Part shown: positions 3,136 through 62,872 of the stretch, piece by piece
How the letters are laid out: each line of letters begins with the position of its first letter
Position numbering within the stretch: position 1 is the stretch's first letter
DNA from: Lentimicrobiaceae bacterium
GTDB taxonomy: Bacteria > Bacteroidota > Bacteroidia > Bacteroidales > UBA4417
DNA: 64,000 bases
Direction: 5' to 3'
NCBI GenBank assembly: GCA_033809755.1
Contig: JAPXLB010000004.1
Location: 131,030 to 195,029 of the forward strand
Notes under the pieces: model-generated
Told to the model about the DNA's origin: nothing
The model's input: only the letters and a program-made list of their open reading frames with translations
The model's database searches: none
Program-made: the position numbers and the translations under genes

Positions 3136-3251
3136 TTTTGAGTGTTGAGTGTTGAGTATTGAGTTTGAAGACTCGTAACTCGAAACTCGAAACTCAGAAC
3201 TAACCCACACCACGCAACACGCAACGCGCAACACGCAACACGTGCCACCCA
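3136..3251. repeat. heptad-periodic palindromic intergenic element, copy A
   Basis: (GAGTnTT)x4 at 3139-3170 faces (ACTCnAA)x4 at 3171-3202, giving an imperfect roughly 30-bp-arm hairpin. It is followed by (CACGCAA)x5 and CCACCCATCAC. The element fills the whole gap between the aroE and purB stop codons. Confidence 0.85.
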
Positions 3252-4598: not shown

Positions 4599-4772
4599 GG
4601 TATTTTTTTTCCAAATGTATAAAACATTTATAATAAAAAAAGAAATTGCAATTTTTTTTAAATAAATAATGTTTTTATTTACGGATTAATGCAAAATAAA
4701 GCCGTGTAATCAGGTATTTATAAGGATTTTCGTCAACAAACGACTTTATATCTAAAATACAGATATGTTTAC

Positions 4773-4780
4773 TACATTTG
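4773..4780 (+). promoter_or_regulatory. Bacteroidota -7 box (TACATTTG) for paralog A
   Basis: Matches TAnnTTTG about 22 nt upstream of the ATG at 4803. An identical box sits in front of paralog B. Confidence 0.55.
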
Positions 4781-4802
4781 CATTGTATTTTACAATTTTG
4801 TG

Positions 4803-6101: not shown

Positions 6102-6225
6102 AAATTAGGTTTTTAGTCGTGTCTTTTCTTGTTTTCTGTATAGGAATGACAAGCTTTCTAAAATTGAGTATCTCGAACTTTTTGTTAATATTTATCTTTA
6201 TATCTCAAAATCAAGATATGTTTAC

Positions 6226-6233
6226 TACATTTG
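6226..6233 (+). promoter_or_regulatory. Bacteroidota -7 box (TACATTTG) for paralog B / radical SAM operon
   Basis: Same TAnnTTTG box within the duplicated 5' module (6196-6354 matches 4744-4901). Confidence 0.55.
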
Positions 6234-6255
6234 CATTGTATTTTACAATTTTGTG

Positions 6256-7506
6256 ATGATAATAGATAAAGAATATCCTGCCACGCACTCTATGTCAACA
6301 AGTTGGTTCGCTGTTGATTGCGAGGGAAATGTTGCCTTGCTTGAATTCAACGAAGAAGGTCCAGTGCCAACTTTTGTTCGAGAAGTGACCTTTGAAGAAA
6401 TAATACTTGAAAGGCTTGTCGATAGTAGTGGCAAAATAAGGAGGAGCATATTAACCGACGAACAAGCTCTGTCATTAGCTTCTTGTTTTGAGTTCATACC
6501 GTATGTATATTCAGATGATTTTTGTTTTTTCTTTCAAACTGTTATTCGTATTAATCCCGAATTAAAAGAAGAGTTCTACGAAGTTATAGCGGGCTTTGAA
6601 CATACAATAGTAATCTTGTCTGAAAAAGAAGGGCTGTACTTATATGATGGCTTTAAATTATCAGAGGAAGAAGAAGAAAAAATAATGTGTGATAGGCTAC
6701 ACAATAAAACGTGCATAATATCATATGCTGAATTTCGTTTAGAATGCACCGTAGAAAAGCCGGACGACTATCCCGTGTGGTTAGCCGAAGGTTTTGAAGG
6801 AATTCCTATGTACATATACGCACAAGAGTACTGGGATACTGCACTAAAGAAGATACATACGCCTAAATGTATAGTAAACGCCAGCCAGTTTGTTGAGGAG
6901 GTTAAGGAGGTGGCGTTATATTTGCCTGTTTCTTTCAAAAATGCCGAACAGTTTCAGATACCGCTTTATTATCCATCAAGATGGATGTCTGAAAGAAAAA
7001 TTAAAAATTCTGATCGTCGATACCATGATTTAAGGATAAGTAAGGGTAACGAACCATTTTTGCTTACAGCGGAATTGCCAATTATTAATAGGATGTATTG
7101 GTCGTATAGTAATACCCCTGGTCTAACTTACACTTTTGAACCTACTGTAGGTATTATCGGAGAAGACAAATATCATATTTATTTTGAATTGCCCGAATAT
7201 ATCTTCAAGTATGCTTTTGGGCTTAACTATGAGATGGGAGGCAGGAAATTATCGGAACTTTTAGAATATTATCGTCCTTACCTGTTGGTTGTTATGGATG
7301 GAGTTTTAAGCAAAATTGAGGAGCATTATCAGATAGTAGATAAAAAATTAATATATGAGGGCGAAGAGTATCCTATTTTTACAAGAGAGGAGGTAACTCA
7401 ACGCAAGGACGAAATCCTTGCTTTAGCCAGAAGGCGATACAGAGGTAAAAAAGACCCAATTGTAATTGATAATGAAGATGATAGAGATAATATCTATAGA
7501 TATTAG
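6256..7506 (+). CDS. hypothetical cytoplasmic protein, paralog B of the tandem pair
   Basis: 417-aa ORF, collinear with paralog A along its whole length and roughly half identical by eye. The N-terminal 34 aa are identical. The 3' end overlaps the radical SAM ORF. Confidence 0.75.
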   Translation: MIIDKEYPATHSMSTSWFAVDCEGNVALLEFNEEGPVPTFVREVTFEEIILERLVDSSGKIRRSILTDEQALSLASCFEFIPYVYSDDFCFFFQTVIRINPELKEEFYEVIAGFEHTIVILSEKEGLYLYDGFKLSEEEEEKIMCDRLHNKTCIISYAEFRLECTVEKPDDYPVWLAEGFEGIPMYIYAQEYWDTALKKIHTPKCIVNASQFVEEVKEVALYLPVSFKNAEQFQIPLYYPSRWMSERKIKNSDRRYHDLRISKGNEPFLLTAELPIINRMYWSYSNTPGLTYTFEPTVGIIGEDKYHIYFELPEYIFKYAFGLNYEMGGRKLSELLEYYRPYLLVVMDGVLSKIEEHYQIVDKKLIYEGEEYPIFTREEVTQRKDEILALARRRYRGKKDPIVIDNEDDRDNIYRY

Positions 7507-8951: not shown

Positions 8952-8988
8952 AAATAGTCCCGATTGCTTACGGCAATCGGGACTATTT
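8952..8988. terminator. bidirectional hairpin terminator
   Basis: AAATAGTCCCGATTGC-loop-GCAATCGGGACTATTT is a perfect 16-bp stem, A-rich on the left and T-rich on the right. It lies between the 8342-8881 ORF and the 3' end of tRNA-Lys. Confidence 0.8.
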
Positions 8989-13450: not shown

Positions 13451-13500
13451 TCGGTATTATATTCAGACCTTGATAAAACAAGGTGTTATATTAAAGAAAA

Positions 13501-13608
13501 AAGGCGACTACATACTCTCCCGGTTTTATCCAGTACCATCTGCGTGTACGGGCTTAACTGCTCTGTTCGGAATGGGAAGAAGTGGACCCCGTAGCTATAG
13601 TCACCAAA
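13501..13608 (-). rRNA. rrf: 5S rRNA
   Basis: The reverse complement contains CCCATTCCGAACAGAG and GGGAGAGTA..GTCGCC. Length and position after 23S fit. Ends are approximate (about 5 nt either way). Confidence 0.9.
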
Positions 13609-13689
13609 ATTTTAAATATCTTAATCTAAAAATTGACTATTGACTGAAAGAAAATACGGTAGGATAAGGAAAAACTTGACTATAACAGA

Positions 13690-16568
<2,879 letters not shown>

Positions 16569-16656
16569 AATGCTCGATATCATAATTCTTACATTATCTT
16601 CTCGTATTTTCTTTCATCTCAATATGTCAAAGAACTTTATCTAATAAAGTATAGAT

Positions 16657-16733
16657 TGGTGGAGAATAACGGATTCGAACCGTTGACCCCCTGCGTGCAA
16701 GGCAGGTGCTCTAGCCAGCTGAGCTAATTCCCC
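16657..16733 (-). tRNA. tRNA-Ala (anticodon UGC), in the 16S-23S spacer
   Basis: The reverse complement reads GGGGAATTAGCTCAGCTGGCTAGAGCACCTGCCTTGCACGCAGGGGGTCAACGGTTCGAATCCGTTATTCTCCACCA. It has the G3:U70 identity pair, and CCA is encoded. Confidence 0.93.
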
Positions 16734-16742
16734 AAAACGATG

Positions 16743-16816
16743 TAGTCCCGCGCAGAGTTGAACTGCGGACCCCTACATTATCAGTGTAGTGCTCTAACCA
16801 ACTGAGCTACGGGACT
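16743..16816 (-). tRNA. tRNA-Ile (anticodon GAU), in the 16S-23S spacer
   Basis: The reverse complement reads AGTCCCGTAGCTCAGTTGGTTAGAGCACTACACTGATAATGTAGGGGTCCGCAGTTCAACTCTGCGCGGGACTA. Confidence 0.9.
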
Positions 16817-16938
16817 AAATTCCTTTTTAGCCTCAGGGCTAAGCCCTCACTCTTTCGTTTGGGATACAATATTAAATAAAAAGTCAAAAATAAAGCAGCA
16901 AAATCCAATACACTCTAGTGTATCATAACAACCTCTCT

Positions 16939-18462
<1,524 letters not shown>

Positions 18463-18588
18463 AGTAATTTGATCTTGTTTGTCTCAGATTGTTATCTCTG
18501 TCAAATAAAATTTGAACAGGGGATGTTGCTGCTTTTGTTATTTTGACTTCAATTATTCAAAGAACTTTATATTTTTTTCAAAAACGAG

Positions 18589-18934
18589 TTTGCAAAATTA
18601 ATATCATTTTTTAAATCTGCAAATTTATTTTGAACTTTTTTTCAAAACGAGTTTGCAAAATTAATATCATTTTTTAAATCTGCAAATCTTTTTTGCTTTT
18701 TTATGAACTTTTATTTTTCAGAAAAGTCAGAAAAAGGGTTTGCAAAATTAATACTATTTTTTAATTCTGCAAATTTTTTATCCGCTTTTTGAGAAAAAAT
18801 TTTCAGAGAAAAGAGAATGCAAAGATAGCAATAATTATTTAAATCTGCAAGTTTCTCGCACTTTTTCCTTTTAGTTTTTCCTAGAACTTGTCCGAAAGGT
18901 TTGCAAAGATAATACTGTTTTTCTAATCTGCAAA
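18589..18934 (-). promoter_or_regulatory. array of five tandem promoter modules upstream of the rRNA operon
   Basis: Five copies sit at 18589-18623, 18652-18686, 18739-18773, 18817-18850 and 18899-18934. On the minus strand each reads TTTGCAGATTTAAAAAATGATATTAATTTTGCAAAC, which is -33 TTTG, a 19-nt spacer, then -7 TAnnTTTG. Copies 1 and 2 are identical, copy 3 differs only slightly, and copies 4 and 5 are degenerate. Confidence 0.7.
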
Positions 18935-24013: not shown

Positions 24014-27000
24014 CTATTTGCCTTGCTGTTTGACTAATTTAAAGTGTTGTACCTTATTATTGTCAAGCATAACTTTTAGATAGTAAACTCCGTCGGCAAG
24101 ATTTTCGATACTAATAAGGTAATTGTTATTGTTTTTATAGCTACCTTGTTTGACTGTATTACCTTTGCTGTCGTATATTATCAGCATCATATCAATGTCT
24201 TGATGATTTCCACTCGTAATGATAAACTTTCCGTTATTAGGATTAGGAAATACAGTTACGTTGCGTGAGCTTTCATTATCTACATTAACATAAGCCAATT
24301 GATATAATGTAACTACAACATTGGCTACATTATTACTTCCGTTTACAGTAATATTGGCGCTTCTAACGACATTGGTTTGGTTCTCTTCGTAGTCTGCTAG
24401 TATGACATCGTTTCCGAAGCCTTGTGGAGTAACTGTACACCATGCAGCATCGGATGTTGCTGTCCAATCAACGTTTGAAGACACGTTAAATTCTACGGTT
24501 CCAGCGTTGTGATTTACTTGAATCTCGGATGGTGTAACACTCATATAAGGTGTTGTTCCTGATTGAACCACTTCTACAATAGCATCGGGGACGTTTGGAG
24601 CAGATACTGTTATTGTAGCTGTCCTGCTATTTACGCTGGCGTTGCTTGTAACTGTAGCTTCAATTGAACCGTCTCCCGTACCTGAGGTCGGATTTATTGT
24701 ACACCAGGTTTCGCTGCTAACAGCATTCCAACTCATATTTGAACTTACATTAAATATTGCGCTACCTCCTTCGTAACCAACACCTTGTTGTGCTGGCGTT
24801 ACGGTTAAGTAGCTAGTAGCAGCTTCTTGTGTTAATGTAACTACAACATCGGGTAGTCCTGTCGAAGAAACTGTAATGTTTGCTATACGTTGTTCTGGGT
24901 TGGTATTTTCGGTGTAAGTAGCTGTGATTGTTCCGTTACCGTTTCCGCTAGGTGTTACTGAGCACCACGACTGGTCTGATGCGGCAGTCCATTCGCCGGA
25001 GGCTGTCACTGTATAATCAACATTGCCTGCATCAGCACTTACGTTGTGATTAGCAGGTTCTACCGATAATACCAAAGGTGTAGCAGCTGCTTGAGTTAGT
25101 GTAACTGTAACATCGGGTAGTCCTGCAGAACTAACGACAATATTTGCTACACGTTGAGTTGTGTTAGTATTTTCGGTGTATGTAGCTGTAATAGTTCCGT
25201 TACCGTTTCCGCTAGGTGTTACGGTACACCAAGTTTGGTTAGATACGGCAGTCCATTCGCCGGAGGCAGTTACTGTATAATCAACGTTACCTGCTGCAGA
25301 GCTTACGTCGTGATTAGCAGGCTCTACGGTTAGCACCAAAGGTGTATTGGCAGCTTGAGTCAGTGTAACTGTAACATCGGGTAACCCTGTCGAAGTAACT
25401 GTAATATTAGCTACACGTTGACTAGTAGTTGTATTTTCGGTGTAATTAGCTGTAATGGTTCCGTTACCGTTGCCACTAGGTGTTACTGTACACCAAGTTT
25501 GGTCTGATACGGCATTCCATGCACCTGAACATACTACGTTGTAATCAACGGTTCCAGCCTGATAACCTACACTATGATTGCTTGGAGTAACGCTTAATGT
25601 GTTGGTTACGTTTCCGTTAATTTCAACATCATCTATTGCCCAATGGTAAGCCCATGAGGCTGTGTAATTAAACTTAATTTTTACGTTGCTTTGGTTATTT
25701 AATTCCGGTATAGATAGTTCTTCTAGGGTTGGATTTGCAGTGGTACTTGTTGTGTAGGAAACTCTTTCCACCCATGTATTACCATCGTCAATGCTGTAAT
25801 AAACTCTTCCTGACGAATTTGTATAATGACGATATTTGTGTTTAAATTTTAGTACTACGTTTGAATATCCGGTAAGGTCTATAGTTGGTGTTATAAGGTC
25901 GGCATTTTGCGAATTTCCCCAACCGTACGTATCGCTATCAATATAGGCGTAATTTCCTGTTAGAATAGGCGCTTGTGATACATTCATAATACCAAATTGC
26001 CATACTTGACCGTTGTTTTGATTATCTTGAATAGTCCAGCATAGAGGTATTGTAGTTTCGTTAAAATTTTCTACAAAAGGCGGATAATAAATACCGCAAT
26101 TAGTTGTAAAACTAACTTGCTGACCGTAAAATGTACCAAAAGAGTTTGTTGCGTAAGCTCTAACGTAATATTTTGTTGAGCTGTTTAAACCGGTAATATT
26201 GCTTGTAAACTGACCAGAGCCTGTTCCATCGCTAGTGTGTTGGTCGCTGATGGTTGGATTTTCTGTTGTTGACCAACATACTCCTCTTTGGGTTATTGCT
26301 GAACCTCCGTCAGATGTTATATTTCCACCGGATACTGCACTATTTGTGGTTATAGAAGTAACAGGATTGGTAGTAAGAACTATACCGCCTGGAGTAAATG
26401 TTTTATCTAGTCCGTATGAAGTTCCATCGCTGTTGGTAGCAGTAATTCTGTAGTGATATGTAGTACCTGGTGTTAATCCTGATAGGTCGGCACTAACATT
26501 CACAGCAGTCGTTCCTGCAGGTAAACTTTGCGTAGTTGTAGTATTTCCATAAGCTTCGGTAGTTCCCCATTCAAAGTGATAAGTAGTAGCCAGGGTGTTT
26601 GGGTTTACTGTACCATTGAGGGTAGCCGAGTTTTGGGTAACGCTGGTAGGATCCAAGGTAATAGCAACAGGATTATTTCCTATTTTGAACGATACTATTC
26701 TAGTATGATTGCCACTTGAGGTTTTTTTGTATTGTGATGTATACCAAAAGGTTATATTGTCGACTGGGTCGACAGCCATTAGCGAGTAGTCGCCCCATCT
26801 GTTAGCATTAGATTGTGATGCTGTTCCTTCTTGAACGCTAATTTCGGGGAAGTCCATTATTCCGCTAGCTAATTGATACTGAGCTTGAGTTTGTCCGGTA
26901 ACTCTAATTCCGGGATAAACCGTACTGCTTGAAATTGAATATCCAAGAGCTATTGCTCCGCTAGCATTCATAGCTATACTACCCATCCATCTGCTGTGCT

Positions 27001-28302: not shown

Positions 28303-28417
28303 GTGGTTGGTGGTTGGAGAATGGTGCGTGTTACGTATTTCGCGGTTCGAGTTTTTGCCACGCAACCCGCAACTCGCACCCCGCAACTCGCACCCCGCAA
28401 CTCAATTTCCAACTTCG
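28303..28417. repeat. heptad-periodic palindromic intergenic element, copy B
   Basis: GTGGTTGGTGGTTGG, GTGCGTGTTACGT and GGTTCGAGTTT face CACGCAACCCGCAACTCGCACCCCGCAACTCGCACCCCGCAACTC. The element occupies almost all of the 140-bp gap between the aspS stop and the start of the 1423-aa gene. Confidence 0.8.
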
Positions 28418-28425
28418 TTATATTA

Positions 28426-30177
28426 TTATTTATTCGCAATTATTTTCAAATTAAGTTCTTTAAGTTGTTCGTCGGATATTGGAGATGGAGAATCAATCAT
28501 AACATCTCTGGCGTTGTTGTTTTTTGGGAATGCTATGAAATCTCTAATTGACTCGCTTCCACCAAAAAGAGAACAAATTCTATCAAAGCCGAAGGCTATG
28601 CCACCGTGTGGCGGAGCTCCATATTGTAAGGCTTTTAGTAGAAATCCGAATTTTTCTTCGGCTTCTTCATTAGAAATACCAAGCAATTCAAAGACTTTAT
28701 TTTGCATTTGCTTGTCGTGTATTCTTATTGAGCCGCCACCGACTTCAACACCATTTATTACCATATCGTAGGCGTTGGCTCTAACTTCTGCCGGGTTGGT
28801 ATCCATAAGGTCAATATCGGCAATGTGTGGACTGGTAAACGGGTGATGCTTTGCATAAAAACGTTTATCTTCTTCGTTCCATTCAAGCAATGGGAAATCG
28901 ACAACCCAAAGCGGGGCATATACATCGTGATTGCGCAGTCCTAACTGATTACCCATTTCTAATCGTAGTTCGCAAAGAGCTTTACGAGTATGGTCTGTTT
29001 CTCCCGAAAGGATTAAAATCAAATCGCCTGCTTTTGCATTAAATTTTTCTGCAACTTTTTTAAGGTCGTCTTCGGTGTAGAATTTATCTACAGAAGACCT
29101 GACGCTGCCGTCTTCATTATATTTTATATACACCATGCCTTTAGCTCCAATTTGCGGTTTTCTCACAAAATCGGTAAGAGCGTCTAATTGCTTGCGTGAG
29201 TAGTTTGCACAGCCTTCGGCACAGATGCCGGCAATGTATTCGGCATTATCAAAAACTTGAAATCCTTTTCCTTTTAGTACATCATTGAGTTCGACAAATT
29301 GCATTCCGAAACGTATGTCAGGCTTGTCGGAACCGTATTTAGCCATAGCTTCGCTATATGCCATTCTAGGGAATTCGTTGAGTTCAATGTTTTTAACCTC
29401 TTTAAAAAGGTATTTAATTAAACCTTCAAAGGTATTTAAAACATCATCTTGTTCCACAAACGACATTTCGCAGTCGATTTGAGTAAACTCGGGTTGACGG
29501 TCGGCACGTAGGTCTTCGTCTCTAAAGCATTTTACAATTTGGAAATACTTATCAAATCCTGAAATCATCAAAAGTTGTTTAAAACTTTGCGGCGATTGAG
29601 GCAGAGCATAAAATTCTCCAGGACTAATCCTTGAAGGTACAACATAATCTCTTGCACCTTCGGGAGTGCTTTTAATAAGGACAGGAGTTTCAATCTCCAA
29701 GAAATCGCAGTTGTTGAGATAGTTGCGTGTTTCAAAAGCAAGTTTATGTCGGAGTATTAAATTTTTTCTCAGCGGTGGTCTTCTTAAATCCAAGTATCTG
29801 TACTTCATTCTGAGCTCATCTCCACCGTCGGTGTTTTCTTCTATTGTAAAAGGAGGTATCAGAGATTTATTAAGAATTTGAAAATTATCGACAATAATTT
29901 CGATTTCGCCGGTAGGTATATTAAGATTTTTGCTGCTTCTTTCGGTAACAGTGCCGTGAGCTTTGATAACAAATTCTCTTCCGAGTTCACGTGCTTTTTC
30001 GCAAAGTTCGGGATTCACTTCCATATTAAATGCAAGTTGTGTAATTCCGTATCTATCACGCAAGTCTATAAAGGTTAATCCGCCGAGGTTGCGTATTCTT
30101 TGCACCCAACCTGCAACAGTTACTTTTTCGGATGTGTTTTTTATCGTTAATTCTCCACAATTGTGTGTTCTATGCAT
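28426..30177 (-). CDS. aspS: aspartate--tRNA ligase
   Basis: 583 aa. Motifs are [50 protein letters not shown] and GGGSIRIH...[12 protein letters not shown]. Confidence 0.95.
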
Positions 30178-33780: not shown

Positions 33781-36078
33781 ATGAAAAAAACTATATTTCT
33801 TTTTTTTACTCTATTAATACTGTCAACAGCTTTATTTTCGCAGAATAATACAATAAAAGGCTTTGTTTACGAAAAATCGACAGGCGAGCCTGTTATGTTT
33901 GCAAGTGTGTTTTTAAAAGGCACAACAATGGGTAGTACCACCGACGAAAACGGTTATTTTATTATCACCCGTATTCCCAAAGGCGAATACACTCTAGTAT
34001 CGACTTTTGTTGGCTACGATACTGTTACCAGACCGGTAAGTCTTAATGTTAACGATAACGTGCAGCTTCGATTAATATTAGAACAATCGACCATTCAACT
34101 CGAAGCGGTGTCGGTATCTGCAGAATATACTTCGGCACGAACAGATATAAGAACTTCGGTAACTCAAGTGACTCCCAAATTGATAAAACAAATACCAACA
34201 ATTGGCGGTCAGGCTGACTTTGCACAGTATTTGCAAGTTTTGCCTGGCGTCGTTTTTACAGGCGATCAAGGCGGACAACTATATATAAGGGGAGGTTCGC
34301 CAATACAAAACAAGGTTTTGCTAGATGGTATGGTTATTTACAATCCGTTTCACTCAATAGGTTTGTTTTCGGTGTTTGAAACCGACTTGTTGCGCACTGC
34401 CGACGTACATTCGGGCGGATTTAGTGCCGAACACGGCGGGAGAATTTCTGCAGTTATGGATTTGAAAACGCGTGACGGAAACAAACAAAGATTGTCGGGA
34501 AAGGTTAGCGGAACCACTTTTGGAGCTAACTTACTGCTTGAAGGACCTTTTGTAAAGCAAGACGAATCGCATGGAGGTACATCATTCTTATTATCGTATA
34601 AAAATTCATATCTCGAACAAAGTTCAAAAGTATTTTACAAATATATAGATGAAGACGGATTGCCTTATAACTTCGATGACTTGTACGGAAAAGTGTCTAT
34701 CAACACAACTAATGGTTCAAAGATAAACTTTTTTGGGTTTAACTTTGCCGATAGGGTAAAATACAAGGCTCTCTCCGATTTTAGTTGGAATACTTTTGGA
34801 GGCGGAACTCACTTTGTTGTTATTCCGGGTATAAGTCCGGTAATGATTGAAGGTAGTATCGCATACTCAAACTATGCTATTTCTATGGACGAAAAAAACA
34901 ACTTACCTCGTTCCAGTAAAATCGACGGTTTTAGTGCATCTGTGGGTGTTACCTCTTTTGTCGGGAAAGATGAGTTTAAGGCAGGAGTCGAAATGCAAGG
35001 TTTTAGCACCGATTTTGTTTATTACAATGCTATGAAACTCAAAACTACCCTTCAACAGTACACAACTGAAGTAGCACCTTACGTAACCTACAGAATGGGA
35101 ATAAATAAGTTTTTATTGGAGCCCGGAATACGACTTCAATACTACGCTTCGCATTCGTACGCTTCGTTTGAGCCACGCTTTGCTTTGAAGTATTTGTTAT
35201 CGGATAAACTTCGTTTAAAATTGGCGTCGGGAATATATTCGCAAAACTTTTTAGCTACAAGCAGCGATAGAGAAGTTGTGAATCTGTTTTACGGGTTTCT
35301 TTCAGGACCTAGAGATTTACCTTCAACCTTCGATGGTAAATCCTTAAAACATAAGATACAAAAAGCCGAGCACATTGTAGTTGGAGCCGAATACGATGCT
35401 TTGAAATATTTGACCTTTAATATTGAAGGCTACTACAAAAACTTTTCTCAACTTATTAATCTGAACCGAAATAAAATATATAACGATATACCGCAGTACA
35501 GCGATAAACCCGAAATTCAGAGAAAGGACTTTATTGTTGAAACCGGAAGAGCGTACGGATTGGACGTTTCTTTAAAATACGACCATAACAACTTGTACAT
35601 TTGGGGAGCTTATTCGCTTTCGTGGGTCGATAGATACGACGGAATGATTACATACGCACCGCACTACGACAGAAGACACAACGTAACATTGTTGGGAGTT
35701 TACAAGTGGGGTGAGTTCGACCAATGGGAAGTTAACTTAAAATGGAATTTCGGTTCTGGATTTCCGTTTACGCAAAATCAGGGATACTACGAGCAGCTGA
35801 TTTTAGTTGACGGAATTTCAAGTGATTTTATTACCGAAAATGGTAAAATTGAAACTATCTACGCCGATTACAATAAGGGCAGACTTTCCGATTATCACCG
35901 TTTGGATTTTGGTTTATCGTATAAGTTTATTATTACCGAGCATTCGAAAATAGAAGTAGCCTTTTCTCTGACAAACGTATATAATCGTAAAAATATATTC
36001 TATGTCGAAAGGCTTTCAACCGAAAGGATTTATCAGTTGCCCATCATGCCGAGTTTGGGCTTAGCTTGGACGTTTTAG
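33781..36078 (+). CDS. TonB-dependent receptor with N-terminal carboxypeptidase-regulatory-like domain
   Basis: 765 aa. IKGFVYEKSTGEPVMFASVFLKGT is the CarboxypepD_reg-like domain. The plug region is DFAQYLQVLPGVVFTGDQGGQLYIRGGSPIQNKVLLDGMVIYNP. The barrel ends ...LGLAWTF. Confidence 0.85.
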   Translation: MKKTIFLFFTLLILSTALFSQNNTIKGFVYEKSTGEPVMFASVFLKGTTMGSTTDENGYFIITRIPKGEYTLVSTFVGYDTVTRPVSLNVNDNVQLRLILEQSTIQLEAVSVSAEYTSARTDIRTSVTQVTPKLIKQIPTIGGQADFAQYLQVLPGVVFTGDQGGQLYIRGGSPIQNKVLLDGMVIYNPFHSIGLFSVFETDLLRTADVHSGGFSAEHGGRISAVMDLKTRDGNKQRLSGKVSGTTFGANLLLEGPFVKQDESHGGTSFLLSYKNSYLEQSSKVFYKYIDEDGLPYNFDDLYGKVSINTTNGSKINFFGFNFADRVKYKALSDFSWNTFGGGTHFVVIPGISPVMIEGSIAYSNYAISMDEKNNLPRSSKIDGFSASVGVTSFVGKDEFKAGVEMQGFSTDFVYYNAMKLKTTLQQYTTEVAPYVTYRMGINKFLLEPGIRLQYYASHSYASFEPRFALKYLLSDKLRLKLASGIYSQNFLATSSDREVVNLFYGFLSGPRDLPSTFDGKSLKHKIQKAEHIVVGAEYDALKYLTFNIEGYYKNFSQLINLNRNKIYNDIPQYSDKPEIQRKDFIVETGRAYGLDVSLKYDHNNLYIWGAYSLSWVDRYDGMITYAPHYDRRHNVTLLGVYKWGEFDQWEVNLKWNFGSGFPFTQNQGYYEQLILVDGISSDFITENGKIETIYADYNKGRLSDYHRLDFGLSYKFIITEHSKIEVAFSLTNVYNRKNIFYVERLSTERIYQLPIMPSLGLAWTF

Positions 36079-36221
36079 CGTGTTGCGGGTTGCCCCGAAG
36101 TTTCGGGATGTTACGTATTGCAGGTTATCCATCACTCGCTCAATTTTACAAATCGAGTGCTATAACTCCTGACTCAAAACTCAGAACTAGCAACTCACTC
36201 ACCACCATTCACCAACCACCA
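36079..36221. repeat. heptad-periodic palindromic intergenic element, copy C
   Basis: GCGTGTTGCGGGTTGC and the CCCGAAGTTTCGGG hairpin lie on the left. AACTCCTGACTCAAAACTCAGAACTAGCAACTCACTCACCACCATTCACCAACCACC lies on the right. The element fills the gap between two convergent stop codons. Confidence 0.8.
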
Positions 36222-36222
36222 T

Positions 36223-37479
36223 TTAAGTTTTTTGTTTCTCCTTTTTAGCTGCAGGGAAAAGAACATTGTTAAGAATAAGTCTGTAACCTGGCGAATTGGG
36301 GAATAATTCCAAGTCTGTTGGTGGGTCTCCAACTCTGTGTTGGTAGTCTTCGGGGTCGTGTCCTCCGTAAAAAGTCCATGTTCCTTTTCCAAACTCGCCG
36401 TGAATGTATTTAGCTTCGTCAAGCGCTTTATTTTCGCCCATAATAACCACATTAGGTTTTAGGTATTTTTTTCTGAATGCCGTTGATTGCCCCATAAAAC
36501 CTTTAATAACTTGAAAATGATTTTGGCAAAGCATGGTAGGAACGGGATCCCACTTAGCAGAGAAGTCGAAAAGTGTGAAAAAGTCGTTTCTTTCCGGAAT
36601 ACTTCTTGCGTGCGGCACATCAATATCAGCAATTTCGTATTCGTAGGGATTGGTGACCAATTTGAAATTTTGAAAAGCCAAACATTGGCTATAGTCCAAT
36701 TTTTCCTGTGCATCCTTGTCCATTGGGTCACCGTCGAACATTGTTTCGCATATATCCGTATTTTCGGCTGCAAGCGCCACATCGTAGCTATCGGGTGCTG
36801 AGCACATTGCAAACATATAACCACCGCCGGCAACAAATTCTTTTATCTTTTTTGCTACTGCAAGTTTTAGTTTGCTTACCTTATTGAAGCCTAATTTTTT
36901 AGCTGTTTCTTCATTCACGCGTTGGTCGTTTTTATACCAATCGCTGTTTCTGTATGCAACCCAAAACTTTCCGTATTGTCCGGTAAAGTCTTCGTGGTGC
37001 AGGTGAAGCCAATCGTACAAAGGCAAAACATTATCCATTACTTCTTCGTCGTAAATCAGGTCGTAGGGTATTTCGGCGTAAGATAGTGCAAGTGTAACGG
37101 CATCGTCCCAAGGTAATTTGTTTTTGGGTGAATAAACAGCAATTTTCGGTGCTTTGTTGAGCTTAACTTCATCCATATTTATTTCGGGCGACGAAATATG
37201 TTCGCGTATAGCCAGCACCTGAACATCGGCAATAACTTGATATTTAACGTTTCTGACTATGCATTCGTTTTCAAACATGTTTGTGTGTCGGAACAAAAAA
37301 GAGCCGCCCTTGTAGTTCAAAAGCCAGCTAACTTCGACATCTCTTTCTAAAACCCAATATGCAATTCCGTACGATTTCAAATGATTGGTTTGGGTATTAT
37401 CCATCGGTATTAAGATGTACGAGGCTTCTACCTTAAAAGATAAAATTATTAGTAAAATAAATAAAAGTCTTCTAATCAT
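36223..37479 (-). CDS. hypothetical secreted protein, possibly class-I glutamine-amidotransferase-like fold
   Basis: Signal peptide MIRRLLFILLIILSFKVEA. KIAVYSP...GGGYMFAMCSAPD resembles a nucleophile elbow, but the fold call is tentative. The start codon lies 1 nt after the dnaB stop. Confidence 0.6.
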   Translation of the reverse strand: MIRRLLFILLIILSFKVEASYILIPMDNTQTNHLKSYGIAYWVLERDVEVSWLLNYKGGSFLFRHTNMFENECIVRNVKYQVIADVQVLAIREHISSPEINMDEVKLNKAPKIAVYSPKNKLPWDDAVTLALSYAEIPYDLIYDEEVMDNVLPLYDWLHLHHEDFTGQYGKFWVAYRNSDWYKNDQRVNEETAKKLGFNKVSKLKLAVAKKIKEFVAGGGYMFAMCSAPDSYDVALAAENTDICETMFDGDPMDKDAQEKLDYSQCLAFQNFKLVTNPYEYEIADIDVPHARSIPERNDFFTLFDFSAKWDPVPTMLCQNHFQVIKGFMGQSTAFRKKYLKPNVVIMGENKALDEAKYIHGEFGKGTWTFYGGHDPEDYQHRVGDPPTDLELFPNSPGYRLILNNVLFPAAKKEKQKT

Positions 37480-45090: not shown

Positions 45091-45597
45091 ATGACAATTT
45101 CCACAAACAAAGTAGTTACACTACATTACGAATTGAGAGAAAATGATGAAAAAGGAACTTTTGTTGAAAAAACAGGTGAAAATTCGCCTTTAGTTTTTAT
45201 TTACGGAGTAGGACAAATGCTGCCAGAATTTGAAAGACAACTGAAAGGTTTAAAGGTTGGCGACAATTTTTCTTTCGGTTTATCCAGCAAAGATGCATAC
45301 GGCGAGTACGATAAAGAGGCTGTGATTGAAGTTAGCAAAAGCATTTTTATGGTTGACGGTAAGCTAAACACCGACCTTCTTGTAGTAGGAAGAATGATAC
45401 CACTGCAAGCACAAAACGGACATATTTTTAACGCCAAAGTCCTTGAAATTCTCGATGATGTCGTGGTGATGGATCTTAATCACCCTATGGCAGGCAAAAA
45501 CCTACATTTTACAGGAAATATTGTTGAAATCCGCGAGGCAACAAAAGAAGAATTAGAACATGGTCATGTTCATTCTTGCGGATGTGGGAGTTGTTAG
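45091..45597 (+). CDS. slyD: FKBP-type peptidyl-prolyl cis-trans isomerase (SlyD-like)
   Basis: VVTLHYELRE, YGVGQMLPEFERQLKGLKVGD and DLNHPMAGKNLHFTGNIVEIREAT. The short metal-binding tail is HGHVHSCGCGSC. Confidence 0.85.
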   Translation: MTISTNKVVTLHYELRENDEKGTFVEKTGENSPLVFIYGVGQMLPEFERQLKGLKVGDNFSFGLSSKDAYGEYDKEAVIEVSKSIFMVDGKLNTDLLVVGRMIPLQAQNGHIFNAKVLEILDDVVVMDLNHPMAGKNLHFTGNIVEIREATKEELEHGHVHSCGCGSC

Positions 45598-45760
45598 GGT
45601 TACGGGTTGCGTGGTGCGGGATAGTTCTGAGTTCCGAGTTTCGAGTCAGGAGTGTTGTCCCGAAAATTCGAGATTAACTCGTAACTCGTAACTCAATACT
45701 CGAGACTAAAAACACTCATCACCCATCACCAACCACTGACCACTAACAGCCAACAGCTAA
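45598..45760. repeat. heptad-periodic palindromic intergenic element, copy D
   Basis: The left half is G/T-rich: GGTTACGGGTTGCGTGGTGCGGG, GTTCTGAGTTCCGAGTTTCGAGTCAGGAGTGTTG. The right half is C/A-rich: AACTCGTAACTCGTAACTCAATACTCGAGAC...CACTCATCACCCATCACCAACCACTGACCAC. The element starts immediately after the slyD stop. Confidence 0.85.
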
Positions 45761-45770
45761 TCAATCAAAA

Positions 45771-46490
45771 TTACGGCTGCCCCAAAATAAAAATAGTAGG
45801 TTTTTTATCGAGAATCGGCTTGTCTTTTTTCCAATCGGCTATGGTTAAAGTTTTTATAAACTCATTTTCGCCGCTTATATCGCTTGCTATACACAAGTAA
45901 ATATGATTAGGTACGGTTTTTAGAAGCGTGTCGATTATATTATTGTTTCGGTAAGGCGTTTCTATAAATATTTGCGAATAATTATCTTTACAAATTCTGT
46001 TTACCAAATTATTTATAAACGGAATTTTTTCTTCCGCCCTTACGGGTATATATCCGTTAAAAGTAAACTGTTGCCCGTTAAGTCCCGAAGCCATAAGAGC
46101 CATCATAATTGATGATGTGCCCAAAAGCGGTATAACTTTGTAATTGTTGTTATGAGCCCATGCAATAAACCAATTACCCGGGTCGGCAATGCAGGGCGTA
46201 CCTGCTTCGCTCATCATTCCAATAGAATTTCCGTCCGAGAGTGTTGTAGCAATTTCTGAAATAAATTCAGACTTATTTGTATGTTCGTTTAAAACAAAAA
46301 ATTCAACCTCGTTTATTGGTCGGGGGAAAGATATGCTAGATAAAAAGCGACGAGCCGTTCGCAACTCTTCGACGACAAAAATATTTAGGTTGTGTATTAT
46401 ATTTATAGTGCTTTTAGGAATGCTCAGGCAGGCGTCGCCATCAGCGATAGGAGTGGGTATAAGATAAACACGACTGCTATTCATAAGCAA
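45771..46490 (-). CDS. SAM-dependent methyltransferase, tetrapyrrole-methylase (RsmI-like) superfamily
   Basis: 239 aa. VYLIPTPIADGD and MMSEAGTPCIADPG are typical of the RsmI/YraL-like fold. Confidence 0.7.
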   Translation of the reverse strand: MLMNSSRVYLIPTPIADGDACLSIPKSTINIIHNLNIFVVEELRTARRFLSSISFPRPINEVEFFVLNEHTNKSEFISEIATTLSDGNSIGMMSEAGTPCIADPGNWFIAWAHNNNYKVIPLLGTSSIMMALMASGLNGQQFTFNGYIPVRAEEKIPFINNLVNRICKDNYSQIFIETPYRNNNIIDTLLKTVPNHIYLCIASDISGENEFIKTLTIADWKKDKPILDKKPTIFILGQP

Positions 46491-48717: not shown

Positions 48718-50181
48718 TCAAAATCTGATTTTTTTATCAATTTCTTCTACATATACTTTAAATTGTTTGTCGGTTTCGATAAGATTTCTAACGGTTTTGC
48801 ATGCGTGCAGCACGGTTGCGTGGTCTTTGTTTCCGCAGTGTTTTCCTATAACAGCCAACGAATATTGGGTGTATTTTTTTGCGAAGTACATAGCCAATTG
48901 TCTTGCCTGAACAATGTTTCTTTTCCTCGATTTGTTATTAATAATTTCAACAGGAAGGTCAAAGTAGTCGAAAACACTTTTTTTGACTAGGTCTATAGAT
49001 ATTTCTTTTTCCGTGTTTTTGATAAACTTGTCGATAATGTTTTTAGTGAGCTCTAAGGTTATTTCTTTTTTATTGAGTGTAGTTTGAGCAATTATTTGTC
49101 TTAAAGCGCCTTCAAGTTCTCTAACATTGTTCGTAACGCGGTATGCTATATATTCAATTATATCGTTTGGAAGTGTAATTCCGTCTTTGTACGCAAGTTG
49201 GTTCAGTATTGCTATACGCGTTTCAACATCCGGTATTTGCAGGTCAGCAGCCAAACCCCATTTAAACCTTGACAGTAGACGTTGTTCAAAGCCGACTAAG
49301 TCAACGGGAGCTTTATCACTGGTTATAATAATTTGTTTACTTTTTTGATGTAAGAAATCAAATATATGGAAAAATACATCCTGAGTTTTTTCTTTACCGC
49401 TCAAAAATTCGATGTCGTCTATTATCAAAACATCTATCATTTGGTAAAAATGAATAAAGTCGTTTTGGTTATTATTTTTAACCGAATCGTAAAACTGCTG
49501 CATAAACTGCTCAATACCGACGTAAAGTACTATTTTTTCGGGAAACAATTCTTTAGCTTTCAAGCCTATAGCTTGTACAAGGTGGGTTTTACCTAATCCG
49601 GTTTGGCTGTATATAAATAATGGATTGAAGCCCGATTTGCCGGGGTTACATGCTACGGCATAACCGGCAGAGCGTGCAAGGCGGTTGCAGTCTCCCTCAA
49701 TAAAGTTATCGAACGAAAAACTTCCGTTAAGCTGCGAGTTGATTTCAATTTTTTTGAGACCTGGAATGATAAAAGGATTTGGAATTTCTCTGTTGTTGCC
49801 CGAGTTGAGGTCTATGGGCATTTGTACGCTTGGATTTTTAGTAACGTTCCGCTTGTTTGTCGGCAGATTTATCGTAAGTGGCGATGTTTGATTGTTTTGC
49901 ATGACAATACTGTATTCCAATCTAGCATCTTTGCCTATTTCTTGTATAAGCGTACGATGTATTATGTCAATATAATGTCCTTCGAGCCATTCGTAAAAGA
50001 AATGGGTTGGGACCTGAATAGTAAGGACATTGTTTTTCAGACGTATTGGTACTATTGGCATAAACCAGGTTTTGTACGCTTGCGGACTTATATTATCTTT
50101 TATTACTTCTAAGCAGTTTTTCCAAATTTTTTCGTGTTCCATGTTTTTGATTATATCTTTATAAAATAAATTATTAGTCAA
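48718..50181 (-). CDS. dnaA: chromosomal replication initiator protein DnaA
   Basis: AAA+ Walker A is GQTGLGKTHL and Walker B is VLIIDDIEFL. The C-terminal DNA-binding helix is RKRNIVQARQLAMYFAKKYT...IGKHCGNKDHATVLHA. The start may instead be the Met at 50142 (MEHEKIWKNCLEVI). Confidence 0.95.
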   Translation of the reverse strand: MTNNLFYKDIIKNMEHEKIWKNCLEVIKDNISPQAYKTWFMPIVPIRLKNNVLTIQVPTHFFYEWLEGHYIDIIHRTLIQEIGKDARLEYSIVMQNNQTSPLTINLPTNKRNVTKNPSVQMPIDLNSGNNREIPNPFIIPGLKKIEINSQLNGSFSFDNFIEGDCNRLARSAGYAVACNPGKSGFNPLFIYSQTGLGKTHLVQAIGLKAKELFPEKIVLYVGIEQFMQQFYDSVKNNNQNDFIHFYQMIDVLIIDDIEFLSGKEKTQDVFFHIFDFLHQKSKQIIITSDKAPVDLVGFEQRLLSRFKWGLAADLQIPDVETRIAILNQLAYKDGITLPNDIIEYIAYRVTNNVRELEGALRQIIAQTTLNKKEITLELTKNIIDKFIKNTEKEISIDLVKKSVFDYFDLPVEIINNKSRKRNIVQARQLAMYFAKKYTQYSLAVIGKHCGNKDHATVLHACKTVRNLIETDKQFKVYVEEIDKKIRF

Positions 50182-50353
50182 TAAAATTAATAAATTAAGG
50201 CATAATGAACGGACAATTAGGGTATTGGTATAATCTCGTGTTCGTTATAGCTTTCAAATTTCAGTTTTCAAAGGTCTTAATAAAATTGTTATAAAAAAAA
50301 TATTTTACCTATTGACTTTTTAGAAATATTTTTGTATAGAGCTTTTGTGACAT

Positions 50354-50374
50354 TTGTTAACAAATTGTTAACAA
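50354..50374. promoter_or_regulatory. tandem 10-bp palindromes TTGTTAACAA-A-TTGTTAACAA
   Basis: Two perfect copies with an 11-bp pitch lie between the yigZ stop and the dnaA start. This could be an operator or a weak AT-rich hairpin. Confidence 0.35.
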
Positions 50375-50390
50375 ACAGTTAAAATAAAAT

Positions 50391-50990
50391 TTATAACTTT
50401 CTAATAATCAATTCCCTTATATTACTAAATTTTTGAATAATTTCATCTTCCATATTTTTTCTGAAGTCGATTTCCAGAGCACAATTCGTGCCAGAAAAAT
50501 TATTATTAATATTGATATTAAACTCTTTTATTATTTTCATCACATCGTTCATCATAATGTATTCAAACTCAAGTATGTAGCCGACTGTAATTATTTTTGT
50601 AATAATTTCAGCTGCTTCAATTGTGAGTTTTGCAGACTTTTTATATGCTTTAATAAGTCCTGATACACCAAGTTTAATGCCTCCAAAATATCTAACAGAA
50701 ACAATCAGAACGTTGGTAAGATTGTACGATCTTATTTGTCCGTAGATTGGCAAACCTGCCGTGCCTGATGGTTCGCCATCGTCGTTGGCTCTGTAATTAT
50801 CCTCAGTAAAACCTAATTTATAAGCGTAGCAGTGATGGGTGGCTTTATAGTGTTCTTTTCTGATGTTAGCCAGTATTTCCTTTATTTCTTCTTCGTCGTT
50901 TACCGGAAATCCGTAGCCCAAAAACTTACTACCCTTAACTTTGTAAAGGCTTTCCGAGGGTTTGTTTATTGTTAAATATTCGTCGCTCAC
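50391..50990 (-). CDS. yigZ: YigZ / IMPACT family protein
   Basis: YKVKGSKFLGYGFPV...KATHHCYAYKLG...DDGEPSGTAGLPI matches the UPF0029/IMPACT N-terminal domain. Confidence 0.85.
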   Translation of the reverse strand: MSDEYLTINKPSESLYKVKGSKFLGYGFPVNDEEEIKEILANIRKEHYKATHHCYAYKLGFTEDNYRANDDGEPSGTAGLPIYGQIRSYNLTNVLIVSVRYFGGIKLGVSGLIKAYKKSAKLTIEAAEIITKIITVGYILEFEYIMMNDVMKIIKEFNININNNFSGTNCALEIDFRKNMEDEIIQKFSNIRELIIRKL

Positions 50991-62528: not shown

Positions 62529-62631
62529 CGGTGGTTGGTGATTGGTGATTGGTGAATGGTGGTGGGTGAGTTTCGAGTATTGAGTTTCGAGTTCCGAGTG
62601 TCTCAACTACCAACTCATAACTCAGAACTAC
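62529..62631. repeat. heptad-periodic palindromic intergenic element, copy E, left part
   Basis: GGTGGTTGGTGATTGGTGATTGGTGAATGGTGGTGGGTGAGTTTCGAGTATTGAGTTTCGAGTTCCGAGTG keeps a continuous 7-nt register. It is followed by CTCAACTACCAACTCATAACTCAGAACTAC. Confidence 0.85.
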
Positions 62632-62665
62632 AAAAAAAGTTGCGGGAAACCTCGCAACTTTTTTT
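62632..62665. terminator. bidirectional rho-independent terminator
   Basis: A7-GTTGCGGG-AAAC-CTCGCAAC-T7. It sits inside the heptad element, upstream of the candidate SLC13 promoter boxes (TAACTTTG at 62496-62503 and TAAGTTTG at 62459-62466 on the minus strand). Confidence 0.8.
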
Positions 62666-62783
62666 ATTTAAATTTTCGGTCATTGAGTGCCGATATTGAG
62701 CATAGCGAAATATCGGTGTATCGAAATGCCGAAAATGGAGAACGATTAAAAATTCAATAACATAAATGTCGAAACTTGGAACA

Positions 62784-62828
62784 CACGCCTCACTCATCAC
62801 TCACCACCAATAGCCAAAAGCCAAAAGC
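62784..62828. repeat. heptad-periodic palindromic intergenic element, copy E, right part
   Basis: CACGCCTCACTCATCACTCACCACCAATAGCCAAAAGCCAAAAGC is the C/A-rich complement type of the left arm at 62529-62600. About 150 bp separates it from the rest of the element. Confidence 0.7.
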
Positions 62829-62841
62829 AAAATCTTACAAT

Positions 62842-62872
62842 AAAAAAAGAGCTAACGAAACTCATTAGCTCT
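62842..62872 (-). terminator. rho-independent terminator of pepC
   Basis: On the minus strand, AGAGCTAA-loop-TTAGCTCT is followed by T7, about 30 nt after the pepC stop. Confidence 0.8.

Follow-up and report, generated by a model that had tools for sequence, protein, structure and literature searches.

Heptad-periodic intergenic repeat clusters of fixed polarity in a Lentimicrobiaceae genome

Described heptamer repeats and the elements of the window

Intergenic arrays of tandem heptanucleotides have been described in several groups of bacteria, and we compare them here with a family of heptad-periodic elements at five loci (A–E) in 64,000 nucleotides of a Lentimicrobiaceae bacterium (Bacteroidales; GenBank assembly GCA_033809755.1, contig JAPXLB010000004.1, positions 131,030 to 195,029; "the window" denotes this whole 64-kb stretch). 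The oldest example is that of the short tandemly repeated repetitive (STRR) sequences, described as a feature of heterocystous cyanobacteria, which Mazel et al. (1990) reportedly described as tandem intergenic heptamers with the units CCCCAGT, TTGGTCA and CAACAGT, and which we take to belong to the same repeat class as the elements of the window. To our knowledge, neither a polarity nor a relation to stop and start codons has been described for the STRRs. Two of these three units contain the AGT core, and the two CCAACAG units of element D are one base off STRR3. PMC4692102 cites only three tandemly repetitive heptanucleotides in Calothrix PCC 7601.

In Xanthomonas, Rehm et al. (2015) found arrays of GGGAATC that are about 90% intergenic and mostly about four units long, with 70–75 convergent pairs per genome (PMC4692102). 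The G-rich strand is the coding strand where an array lies ≤50 nt after a stop codon or overlaps it, and the non-coding strand just before start codons; arrays occupy the same gene junctions in related species while varying in length and sequence, and their function is unexplained (PMC4692102). These arrays, together with the GGGGA(C/T)T heptamers of Nostoc, resemble the elements of the window in their 7-nt arrays, their convergent G-then-C pairs and their placement relative to codons, and a G-rich array ≤50 nt after or overlapping a stop codon, in the coding strand, is found at loci A–D, with E as the exception. They differ in the unit, which is GAGTnnn, GCGnGTT or GGTGnTT in the window as opposed to GGGAATC in Xanthomonas, and in the lack of G-quadruplex potential in the window copies. 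Furthermore, unlike the Xanthomonas pairs, the elements of the window nest several heptad types, of which the innermost pair alone is complementary, and their host belongs to the Bacteroidales.

MacGregor (2015) described TAACTGA heptamers that immediately precede start codons in Beggiatoaceae, in Cyanobacteria and in five Bacteroidetes; with a single exception, the 170 TAACTGA sets of BOGUAY are direct rather than inverted repeats, and the author proposes a binding site for a translational regulator (PMC4679880). Other heptamer arrays occupy the same spacers in Gramella, Aequorivita and Elizabethkingia, while close relatives have no repeats at the same junction, and the distribution among Bacteroidetes with such arrays (Flexibacter, Gramella, Aequorivita and Elizabethkingia) is patchy (PMC4679880). 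Elizabethkingia contigs were also reported to end inside heptamer repeat regions, probably as a result of assembly difficulty (MacGregor, PMC4679880). TAACTGA is an nnnACTN unit (ATAACTG) that lies a few nucleotides upstream of starts, like the ACTC-type arms of the window, and the single TAACTGA array that follows a stop codon in F. litoralis has the AGT orientation, again as in the window. One unit type dominates the TAACTGA spacers, whereas the elements of the window nest several. Finally, the survey of long simple sequence repeats (LSSR) by Mrazek et al. (2007), as relayed in PMC4679880 and PMC4692102, found heptamers to be the most abundant of 5–11-nt repeats in most genomes and proposed polymerase slippage as their origin; the 7-nt-step strain polymorphism described below fits this proposal, while inverted pairing, polarity and a GAGT core are absent from that survey as it is relayed there. 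A literature search with the unit strings GAGTTCT, AGAACTC, GAGTGCT and similar returned no relevant paper.

Arrays in the window were detected with Tandem Repeats Finder (TRF), a whole-window period-7 autocorrelation scan and motif searches with mismatches. A sequence-only reading of this DNA had described a dispersed, related, heptad-periodic and strand-asymmetric family at five loci (A, 3136–3251; B, 28303–28417; C, 36079–36221; D, 45598–45760; E, 62529–62828), and this description is borne out. TRF returned period-7 arrays at 3134–3242, 28303–28403, 45623–45694, 62530–62599 and 62807–62832, and the autocorrelation scan flagged only element loci in the whole window, with locus C under threshold and recovered by the motif searches. 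Each of the three proposed motif types is enriched over chance in the window: GAGTNNN ×3 (GAGTNNNGAGTNNNGAGT) with ≤1 mismatch gave 21 matches against 0.11 expected, GCGNGTT ×2 with ≤2 mismatches gave 23 against 2.8, and GGTGNTT ×2, also with ≤2 mismatches, gave 15 against 5.2, and all but a few scattered matches fall within the five loci. The strand asymmetry is likewise evident, with a G+T fraction of 0.59–0.82 in the 5′ halves and 0.20–0.44 in the 3′ halves, the G-rich half preceding the C-rich half on the same strand at all five loci. The 7-nt period, which had been called strict, holds for the arrays generally, save for one 8-nt step from 45691 to 45699.

All five loci are intergenic, as is a sixth copy that lies about 2.7 kb outside the window and was seen in a sister strain (GCA_050949205.1, 98.2% DNA identity). 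This sixth copy (L164, 17262–17446, to the left of the window) consists of (GCGGGTT)×5, the hairpin CCCGAAGTTTCGGG, GAGT ×4, ACTC ×5 and a second hairpin, CCCGAATTCTCGGG.

The window thus holds tandem arrays of a 7-nt unit in at least three copies, which places them in the heptanucleotide tandem repeat class: the elements represent a known, unexplained class, of which both the host and the unit types are new here. In the sequence-only reading, they had not been recognized as a described family of repetitive extragenic palindromic (REP) sequences, bacterial interspersed mosaic elements (BIME) or miniature inverted-repeat transposable elements (MITE); they are indeed not REP, BIME, classic MITE or Rfam elements, but they do belong to the described heptanucleotide class (PMC4692102, PMC4679880). 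They share with REP, BIME and REPIN (REP doublets) an intergenic, palindromic character, a frequent position by stop codons, inverted doublets of fixed polarity and a number of dispersed copies, and differ from them in their mosaic copies and in arms built from tandem heptads that vary in number. This identity was ruled out, with no GTAG foot in any of the five elements, as was that of a classic MITE, with outer ends that differ in all five copies and no visible duplication. Rfam at the gathering threshold returned only rRNA and tRNA hits in the window and none at the elements, and no Y1 transposase domain, as found in REP-associated tyrosine transposases (RAYT), is present in the Pfam annotations examined, which cover about half of the window.

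Whole-heptad variation among strains and turnover between species

Orthologous 20-kb regions of four strains (L310–L313) and of a sister species (L308, 79–90% nucleotide identity) were found via members of the SlyD cluster. The flanking 20.5 kb are otherwise colinear among the strains, at 96–99% identity, and the spacers that hold C and D differ in length among them by one whole heptad at each change. The spacer between slyD and the gene for a 237-aa protein (locus D) measures 173 nt in the window, 180 nt in both L310 and L311, 187 nt in L312, 194 nt in L313 and 309 nt in L308; that between the TonB receptor gene and the 418-aa gene (locus C) measures 144 nt in the window and in L310, 151 nt in L312 and L313, and 228 nt in L308, with C not covered in L311. 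The heptads gained or lost lie in different arrays (ATTGCTC, ACCACTA, AACTCGT and AACTCAG): element C has one additional AACTCAG unit in sister strains, and three separate arrays in the 3′ half of element D vary by one heptad each. In L313, an ACTC-arm unit has been added without a matching GAGT unit, and the two arms are therefore not kept in step. This is a clean Bacteroidales example of strain-level polymorphism in 7-nt steps, and the arrays are ready-made hypervariable strain markers.

The sister species carries arrays at both junctions as well, built from other heptads (GTGTTAC, CATCACT, CATTGCA and ATTGTTA). What is conserved relative to the window is the outer ends only, together with the small hairpin CCCGA-N4-TCGGG at locus C, and the polarity, which is kept with a G+T fraction of 0.55–0.70 in the 5′ half and 0.18–0.32 in the 3′ half. 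Heptad arrays (CTTTAGC, AGCCAAT and TTTTAGT) are also present at L308 4544–4691 and 16212–16270, in two spacers that are array-free in the window. Because the sister species has these extra arrays, arrays are gained and lost on a speciation timescale.

PurB of the window is 99% identical to a protein recorded as 'MAG: Bacteroidales bacterium', and the next relatives by PurB (65–69% identity) are Lentimicrobium and Lentimicrobiaceae. In the nearest outgroup (L172, PurB 69% identical), purB and aroE overlap by 14 nt with no element between them, and no period-7 array was found in 16.7 kb of this outgroup. Compared with it, PurB and AroE of the window diverge and stop 2–3 residues early, with their stops within the first heptads. 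Element A is identical in the sister strain. We also observed that purB (3252–4598) differs from the sister strain at 62 of 1347 nt while the adjoining element A and aroE (2386–3251) show 0 differences in 866 nt, which hints that recombination had a boundary at the element or close to it. A spacer of Lentimicrobium sp. GCA_054813825.1 (L173, 1–442) carries arrays of period 6, 7 and 8 (AGGTTG / CTTAAC, AATTTCC and TTCCATTA), with CTTAAC arrays on both sides of its AGGTTG arrays (109–145) and hence no simple G-first order; since this spacer carries periods 6 and 8, the wider lineage does not always keep to a unit of 7.

Replication slippage produces just such additions and losses of entire 7-nt units, and arrays turn over completely between species while keeping their junction. 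Taking these observations into account, we lean, with moderate confidence, toward reading the elements as slippage-driven and mostly non-adaptive heptad clusters that are filtered by selection on the neighbouring genes. Heptanucleotide simple-sequence repeats of the STRR kind would accumulate in the untranslated gaps at gene ends, often building up around a small G+C hairpin, CCCGA-N4-TCGGG. The arrays would be largely non-adaptive DNA, in part spread as MITE-like copies, and their polarity, with the G-rich arm first, would be imposed by purifying selection on the adjacent genes.

The extent of spread by copying bears on a rival explanation, namely that the elements form a mobile family of a non-autonomous, MITE- or REPIN-like sort, with hairpin arms that by chance consist of heptad arrays and with a transposase encoded elsewhere in the genome. 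Non-periodic modules are common to copies in this genome: CCCGAA-NN-TTCGGG occurs in C and in the sixth copy (L164), with a diverged form in D, GTTACGTATT is common to B and C, and CCCnCACCACGCAAC to A and D. These shared modules are the basis on which we regard the window copies as related by descent. The junction ACTCNNNACTCAGAACTA (A, C, D and E1) was dropped as proof of common descent, because GAGTTCT/AGAACTC is simply a common unit; it matches more than 120 unrelated metagenome contigs with a GC content of 33–71%. Such a mobile family would also account for a high-GC subfamily in which a repeat of about 150 nt has conserved ends and wholly unrelated flanks, for one IMG/VR contig with three copies of identical left arm and loop, and for the lack of an element at the orthologous junction in the nearest outgroup, and a fixed doublet polarity is expected of REPIN-like units. 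The copies of the window, however, have neither common termini nor a target-site duplication nor a GTAG foot, each is a different mosaic with its own module order, the supposed signature junction ACTCAGAACTA occurs in more than 120 unrelated metagenome contigs, and heptad-step variation with in-place turnover accounts for most of the differences. No transposase domain is found in the Pfam annotations of the sister-strain loci (about half of the window; the whole window was not scanned) or of eight flanking proteins, and a search for array pairs 0.3–4 kb apart as possible transposase flanks gave 23 candidates, mostly in one array-rich contig. We therefore judge a mobile family to be a rather unlikely explanation of the elements as a whole, while some spread by copying probably does occur, as the shared modules in the window and the high-GC subfamily indicate.

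The high-GC subfamily is a MITE-like dispersed repeat seen in metagenome loci L211, L214, L216, L224, L231, L288 and L292 (GC 0.63–0.71), with the outer inverted repeat CACTTGAGTYGAG...CTCGACTCAAGTG and inner arms of GAGTTGT/GAGTTCT and AGAACTC/ATGACTC in varying unit number.

Distribution, polarity and hairpin folding

The pattern (GAGTNNN)×3, 3 to 33 nt, (NNNACTC)×3 was run on IMG/VR and on species-representative genomes. It matched 42 stretches in the former and at least 119 in the latter, with GAGTnnn palindromes in at least 10 named bacterial groups. Among the matches listed, carriers include Acidobacteriota (Pyrinomonadaceae, Blastocatellia and Terriglobia), Planctomycetota, Nitrospira, Chloroflexota, Verrucomicrobiota, Gemmatimonadota and Proteobacteria, Cyanobacteria of the genera Nostoc, Calothrix, Scytonema and Heteroscytonema, and, within the Bacteroidota, Hymenobacter, Larkinella, Mucilaginibacter, Gelidibacter, Lewinellaceae and Alistipes. 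A second, narrower pattern matched more than 120 metagenome contigs with a GC content of 33–71%. The architecture of the window elements, often with the same GAGT core, can thus be traced to hundreds of contigs across many phyla, and the five copies in the window are far from the only occurrences. In the flanks of the matches, 703 arrays have a period of 7, compared with at most 50 for any other period, and half of the other flank arrays have cores without AGT. In high-GC organisms, the three variable bases differ between elements and are complementary inside an element. One putative viral contig of 40.8 kb (IMGVR_UViG_3300005578_000008; L015, L024, L030 and L043) carries at least seven GAGT/ACTC palindromes, three of them with an identical left arm and loop.

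The order of the arms follows a rule without exception in 57 cases: GAGT arms precede ACTC arms in 42 cases and GGTG arms precede CACC arms in 15, with none in the reverse order for either, such that the sense order is stop codon, G-type array, C-type array, start codon. Adjacent array pairs as a whole are distributed 322 to 2, most of the 322 having been selected by the search pattern itself, and G equals or exceeds C in the 5′ arm of 40 out of 42 inverted pairs of other heptads. GAGT arrays that stand alone, lacking an ACTC partner within 80 nt, follow directly after a same-strand stop in 48 cases, compared with 10 in the opposite sense. Start codons lie within 19 nt of 13 out of 27 ACTC-type arrays and of 1 out of 18 GAGT-type arrays, the remaining 17 of which are at least 28 nt away. 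Furthermore, the stops of incoming long open reading frames (ORFs) are most frequent between –14 and +6 relative to the first unit, where 144 of 240 sides have them, and they spike at the first unit itself; G-type arrays close all three reading frames in 44–50% of cases as against 3–11% for the antisense. No preference for 3′ ends or convergent junctions was seen across phyla, the context being proportional to background.

In every window copy, the sense strand of the gene next to it is rich in G and T (GAGT-, GCG-GTT- or GGTG-type units) just after a stop and C/A-rich just before a start. The outer arrays at either side of A and of D are not complementary to one another, yet each of them is G/T-rich when read in the sense of the gene beside it. 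These observations point to a polarity tied to the neighbouring genes rather than to the hairpin. A transcription-linked mutation bias behind the G/T richness was rejected, since in B and E the same sense strand is C/A-rich in the half that lies upstream of a co-directional start. The arrangement could be produced by selection on the neighbouring genes if G-type arrays, rich in TGA and TAG, were harmless downstream of a stop, and C-type arrays, which are G-poor, lack ATG, GTG and TTG in the window and are suggested also to lack Shine-Dalgarno-like motifs, were harmless upstream of a start; the reverse arrangement would, we suggest, extend ORFs, create false initiation sites or expose C-rich RNA on which Rho could load. 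Neither B nor E has an ATG, GTG or TTG in its C/A-rich leader. The exceptionless rule makes the effect of the arrays on neighbouring genes a testable question. The region 48718–50181 and 50165–50608 holds dnaA (Bac_DnaA domains), which is followed by an AT-rich spacer with several short repeats, so that the replication origin may lie in the window; elements on either side of it show the same G/T-then-C/A order.

The sequence-only reading had proposed that the whole element could fold into a long imperfect hairpin. The GAGT/ACTC core does pair, while the outer arrays have no complementary partner (CGCAACN in A, and GGTTNCG opposite CACCNAT/CCAACAG in D). The z-scores of predicted RNA folds range from about –3 to about –6 in A, D and E1 and from 0 to –2.4 in B and C, and at locus D the z-score falls from –6 in the window to –2 in the sister species. 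A whole-element hairpin is further undercut by arms that gain or lose units independently among strains and by a pairing that decays in the sister species as the polarity persists. Polarity is better conserved than the hairpin, and the predicted core hairpin, whether in RNA or single-stranded DNA, looks like a by-product and not a conserved feature.

The same data bear on the possibility that the elements are functional RNA stem-loops, acting as bidirectional terminators, as protectors of 3′ ends or as RNase III sites and insulators between convergent or co-directional genes. REP sequences in E. coli are known to protect 3′ ends against exonucleases, and elements A, C and D take up the entire convergent spacer, leaving no room for another terminator. 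The core hairpins are also much stabler than shuffled controls (D at –58.6 kcal/mol, z = –6; A, z = –3.7), high-GC organisms have perfect stems of 20–35 bp in which the variable triplets are complementary within each element, a T-tract (≥5 T in the 8 nt after the 3′ arm) follows about 10% of elements where about 2% are expected, and arrays stay at the same junctions across species. However, apart from the non-complementary outer arrays and the independent changes of the arms, the window elements have no U-tracts, by which a canonical intrinsic terminator was ruled out, and were not flagged as terminators except for a weak hit in A (3206–3235, minus strand), even though canonical terminators were flagged elsewhere in the window, for example at 62632–62665 and 8952–8988. 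Across phyla, placement between divergent genes (25/130, 19%) equals the 19% background. Nor is the G-first rule inherited from terminators, since in the same sequences the G-first bias of ordinary terminator-like hairpins is 49:35, too weak to account for 57:0. We consider a stem-loop function of this kind unlikely, while giving it some weight.

G-quadruplex or i-motif formation, which has been put forward for the heptamers GGGAATC of Xanthomonas and GGGGAYT of Nostoc, is a further structural explanation. (GCGGGTT)n does give G3N4 repeats, and a canonical motif, GGGTTGCGGGTTACGGGTTGCGGG, is present in the sister strain's sixth copy, but the whole 64-kb window contains no G3+N1–7 ×4 motif on either strand and the dominant GAGTnnn and GGTGnTT units are unable to form a G-quadruplex, making this explanation barely credible for the elements in question.

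A core of (G/T)AGT held at a 7-nt register with three positions free, in many phyla, would also be expected of binding sites for an oligomeric nucleic-acid-binding protein with a 7-nt register, in which binding to the first-transcribed GAGU arm competes with the hairpin and so regulates termination or translation. HutP binds UAG triplets spaced 4 nt apart and TRAP binds GAG/UAG repeats, and we draw this possibility by analogy with them. The putative protein-binding arm is always the one transcribed first, and MacGregor proposed binding of S1, Csp or CsrA for the related TAACTGA arrays (PMC4679880). On the other hand, heptads without GAGT (GGTGnTT, GCGnGTT, GGGAATC, CATTGCA and others) keep the polarity and take the place of GAGT at orthologous sites, no candidate for the protein was found, and the carrier phyla have no known shared protein of this kind. 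Such binding sites are thus a quite improbable account, more so than a mobile family.

The reading that we prefer, slippage with filtering by selection on neighbouring genes, has several points standing against it. The absence of function is inferred from turnover, and a function could be the reason why arrays persist at the same junctions from one species to another. The cross-phylum loci were chosen by the GAGT pattern, which biases the motif statistics, and their gene calls are crude longest-ORF calls. Stop-codon supply as the sole cause of polarity is weakened by TAACTGA, in which the stop-rich strand is the ACT-type; as TAACTGA obeys the same AGT/ACT orientation, stop supply cannot by itself account for the polarity. 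The pair polarity (57:0) is also somewhat stronger than the solo-array bias (48:10) predicts. Finally, a selection filter does not explain the recurrence of GAGT across phyla or the 7-nt period, and these, together with the exceptionless polarity, form the interesting residue of the analysis.

This residue could be accommodated if the (G/T)AGTnnn palindromes, with a range spanning Acidobacteriota, Planctomycetota, Cyanobacteria, Bacteroidota, Nitrospirota, Chloroflexota, Verrucomicrobiota, Gemmatimonadota, Proteobacteria and others, were one pan-bacterial class whose invariant core and absolute polarity reflect a dedicated mechanism and not passive filtering, an idea that we hold to be possible though doubtful. 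Such a mechanism may involve a heptad- or hairpin-specific enzyme that makes or moves arrays, a ring-shaped RNA-binding protein that reads the 7-nt register, an insulator in which the G-rich RNA emerges first and at once sequesters the C-rich Rho-loading arm, or GT-rich 3′ tails that favour RecA loading after palindrome cleavage.

Element anatomy, flanking genes and other features of the window

Elements A, C and D exactly fill convergent junctions, as had been proposed, namely aroE/purB, the TonB-dependent receptor gene and a 418-aa ORF, and FKBP-SlyD and a 237-aa ORF. The assignment of the latter as a methyltransferase is weaker than had been stated, with only a sub-threshold TP_methylase hit. 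The further claim that every copy abuts a stop codon holds for A, C and D, where stops lie in or directly before the first unit, but not for B and E, as set out below.

In element A, the 5′ arm (3133–3168, plus strand) reads TAGTTTT GAGTGTT GAGTGTT GAGTATT GAGTTTG, with the first unit providing the aroE stop TAG (3133–3135). The 3′ arm of the core hairpin (3171–3203, plus strand), ACTCGTA ACTCGAA ACTCGAA ACTCAGA ACTA, is GAGT-type on the minus strand, and it is to this core that the RNA fold z-score of A refers. The outer unpaired arrays (3204–3254, minus strand) read, in the sense of purB, GTGATGGGTGG and then TTGCGTG ×5, with the purB stop TGA (3252–3254, minus strand) in the first unit. The first heptads of A thereby supply the stop codons of both flanking genes, and arrays of this kind create false ORFs as well as real stops: the spurious ORF containing CCVLRVACCVVW that had been pointed out exists at 2983–3255 on the minus strand.

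Element B begins with a G/T-rich half (28303–28356, plus strand) of GTGGTTG ×2 followed by degenerate GCGTGTT/ACGTATT/TCGCGGT units, which on the minus (coding) strand is a C/A-rich leader that ends 17 nt before the start codon of a BACON/type IX secretion system (T9SS) gene. The CGCAACN ×6 array (28357–28403) reads GAGTTGC/GGGGTGC on the minus strand, where it starts 22 nt past the aspS stop (28426–28428). The last CGCAACN unit thus falls 22 nt short of the stop codon, and even the end that had been given for the element, 28417, is 8 nt off.

The 5′ half of element C (36076–36132, plus strand) consists of the stop TAG of the TonB-dependent receptor gene, CGTGTTG CGGGTTG, the hairpin CCCCGAAGTTTCGGG (36093–36107) and a degenerate G/T-rich stretch. 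Its 3′ half (36133–36225, plus strand) begins with the inverted repeat CACTCG...CGAGTG, continues with ACTCCTG ACTCAAA ACTCAGA ACTAGCA (36165–36192), and ends in CACC-type heptads that reach the stop TAA of the 418-aa gene (36223–36225, minus strand).

In element D, the slyD stop TAG is followed in the 5′ half (45595–45656, plus strand) by GGTTACG GGTTGCG TGGTGCG and TAGTTCT GAGTTCC GAGTTTC GAGTCAG GAGTGTT, and the centre (45657–45676) contains the small hairpin module CCCGAAAATTCGAG. The inner part of the 3′ half (45677–45773, plus strand) has ACTCGTA ×2, ACTCAAT, ACTCGAG and ACTA, and the outer part CATCACC/CAACCAC/TGACCAC units, CCAACAG ×2 and CTAATCA, reaching as far as the TAA that ends the 237-aa gene (stop codon at 45771–45773, minus strand).

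Element E is divided. E1 (62529–62631, plus strand) comprises GGTGNTT ×5–6, GAGTNNN ×5 and ACT(C/A) ×4 and lies upstream of the promoter and start of a CitMHS transporter gene (start codon at 62442, minus strand), beginning 86 nt upstream of this codon and beyond the promoter. Beside it is a bidirectional intrinsic terminator (62632–62665) of the form A7-stem-loop-stem-T7, which is not heptadic. E2 (62785–62832, plus strand) is a C/A-rich half only, CACTCAT CACTCAC CACCAAT AGCCAAA AGCCAAA AGCAAAA; it can form base pairs with E1's GGTG array over a distance of about 220 nt and lies downstream of the peptidase C1 gene's own terminator, the hairpin of which separates it from the stop codon. Nested in this element, the stretch of about 170 nt between the bidirectional terminator and the terminator of the peptidase gene (about 62838–62870), at 62666–62837, contains a strong hairpin at about 62677–62740 and neither an ORF nor an Rfam hit, and may be a small RNA or a remnant.

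Further repeats were observed in the window. The segments 4744–4930 and 6196–6382 both match one 187-nt stretch of the sister strain (L164), in which 4931–6195 (about 1.27 kb) is absent; the window has two paralogous genes (417–433 aa) at 4744–6382 compared with one (416 aa) in L164, which suggests a recent tandem duplication. At 18572–18813, tandem repeats of 63 and 87 nt are found immediately upstream of the gene for 16S rRNA, on the promoter side of its operon (13499–18465). Finally, a 264-nt × 2.7 tandem repeat (24816–25520, 83% matches) inside the 1423-aa BACON/Por_Secre_tail gene reflects repeated BACON domains.

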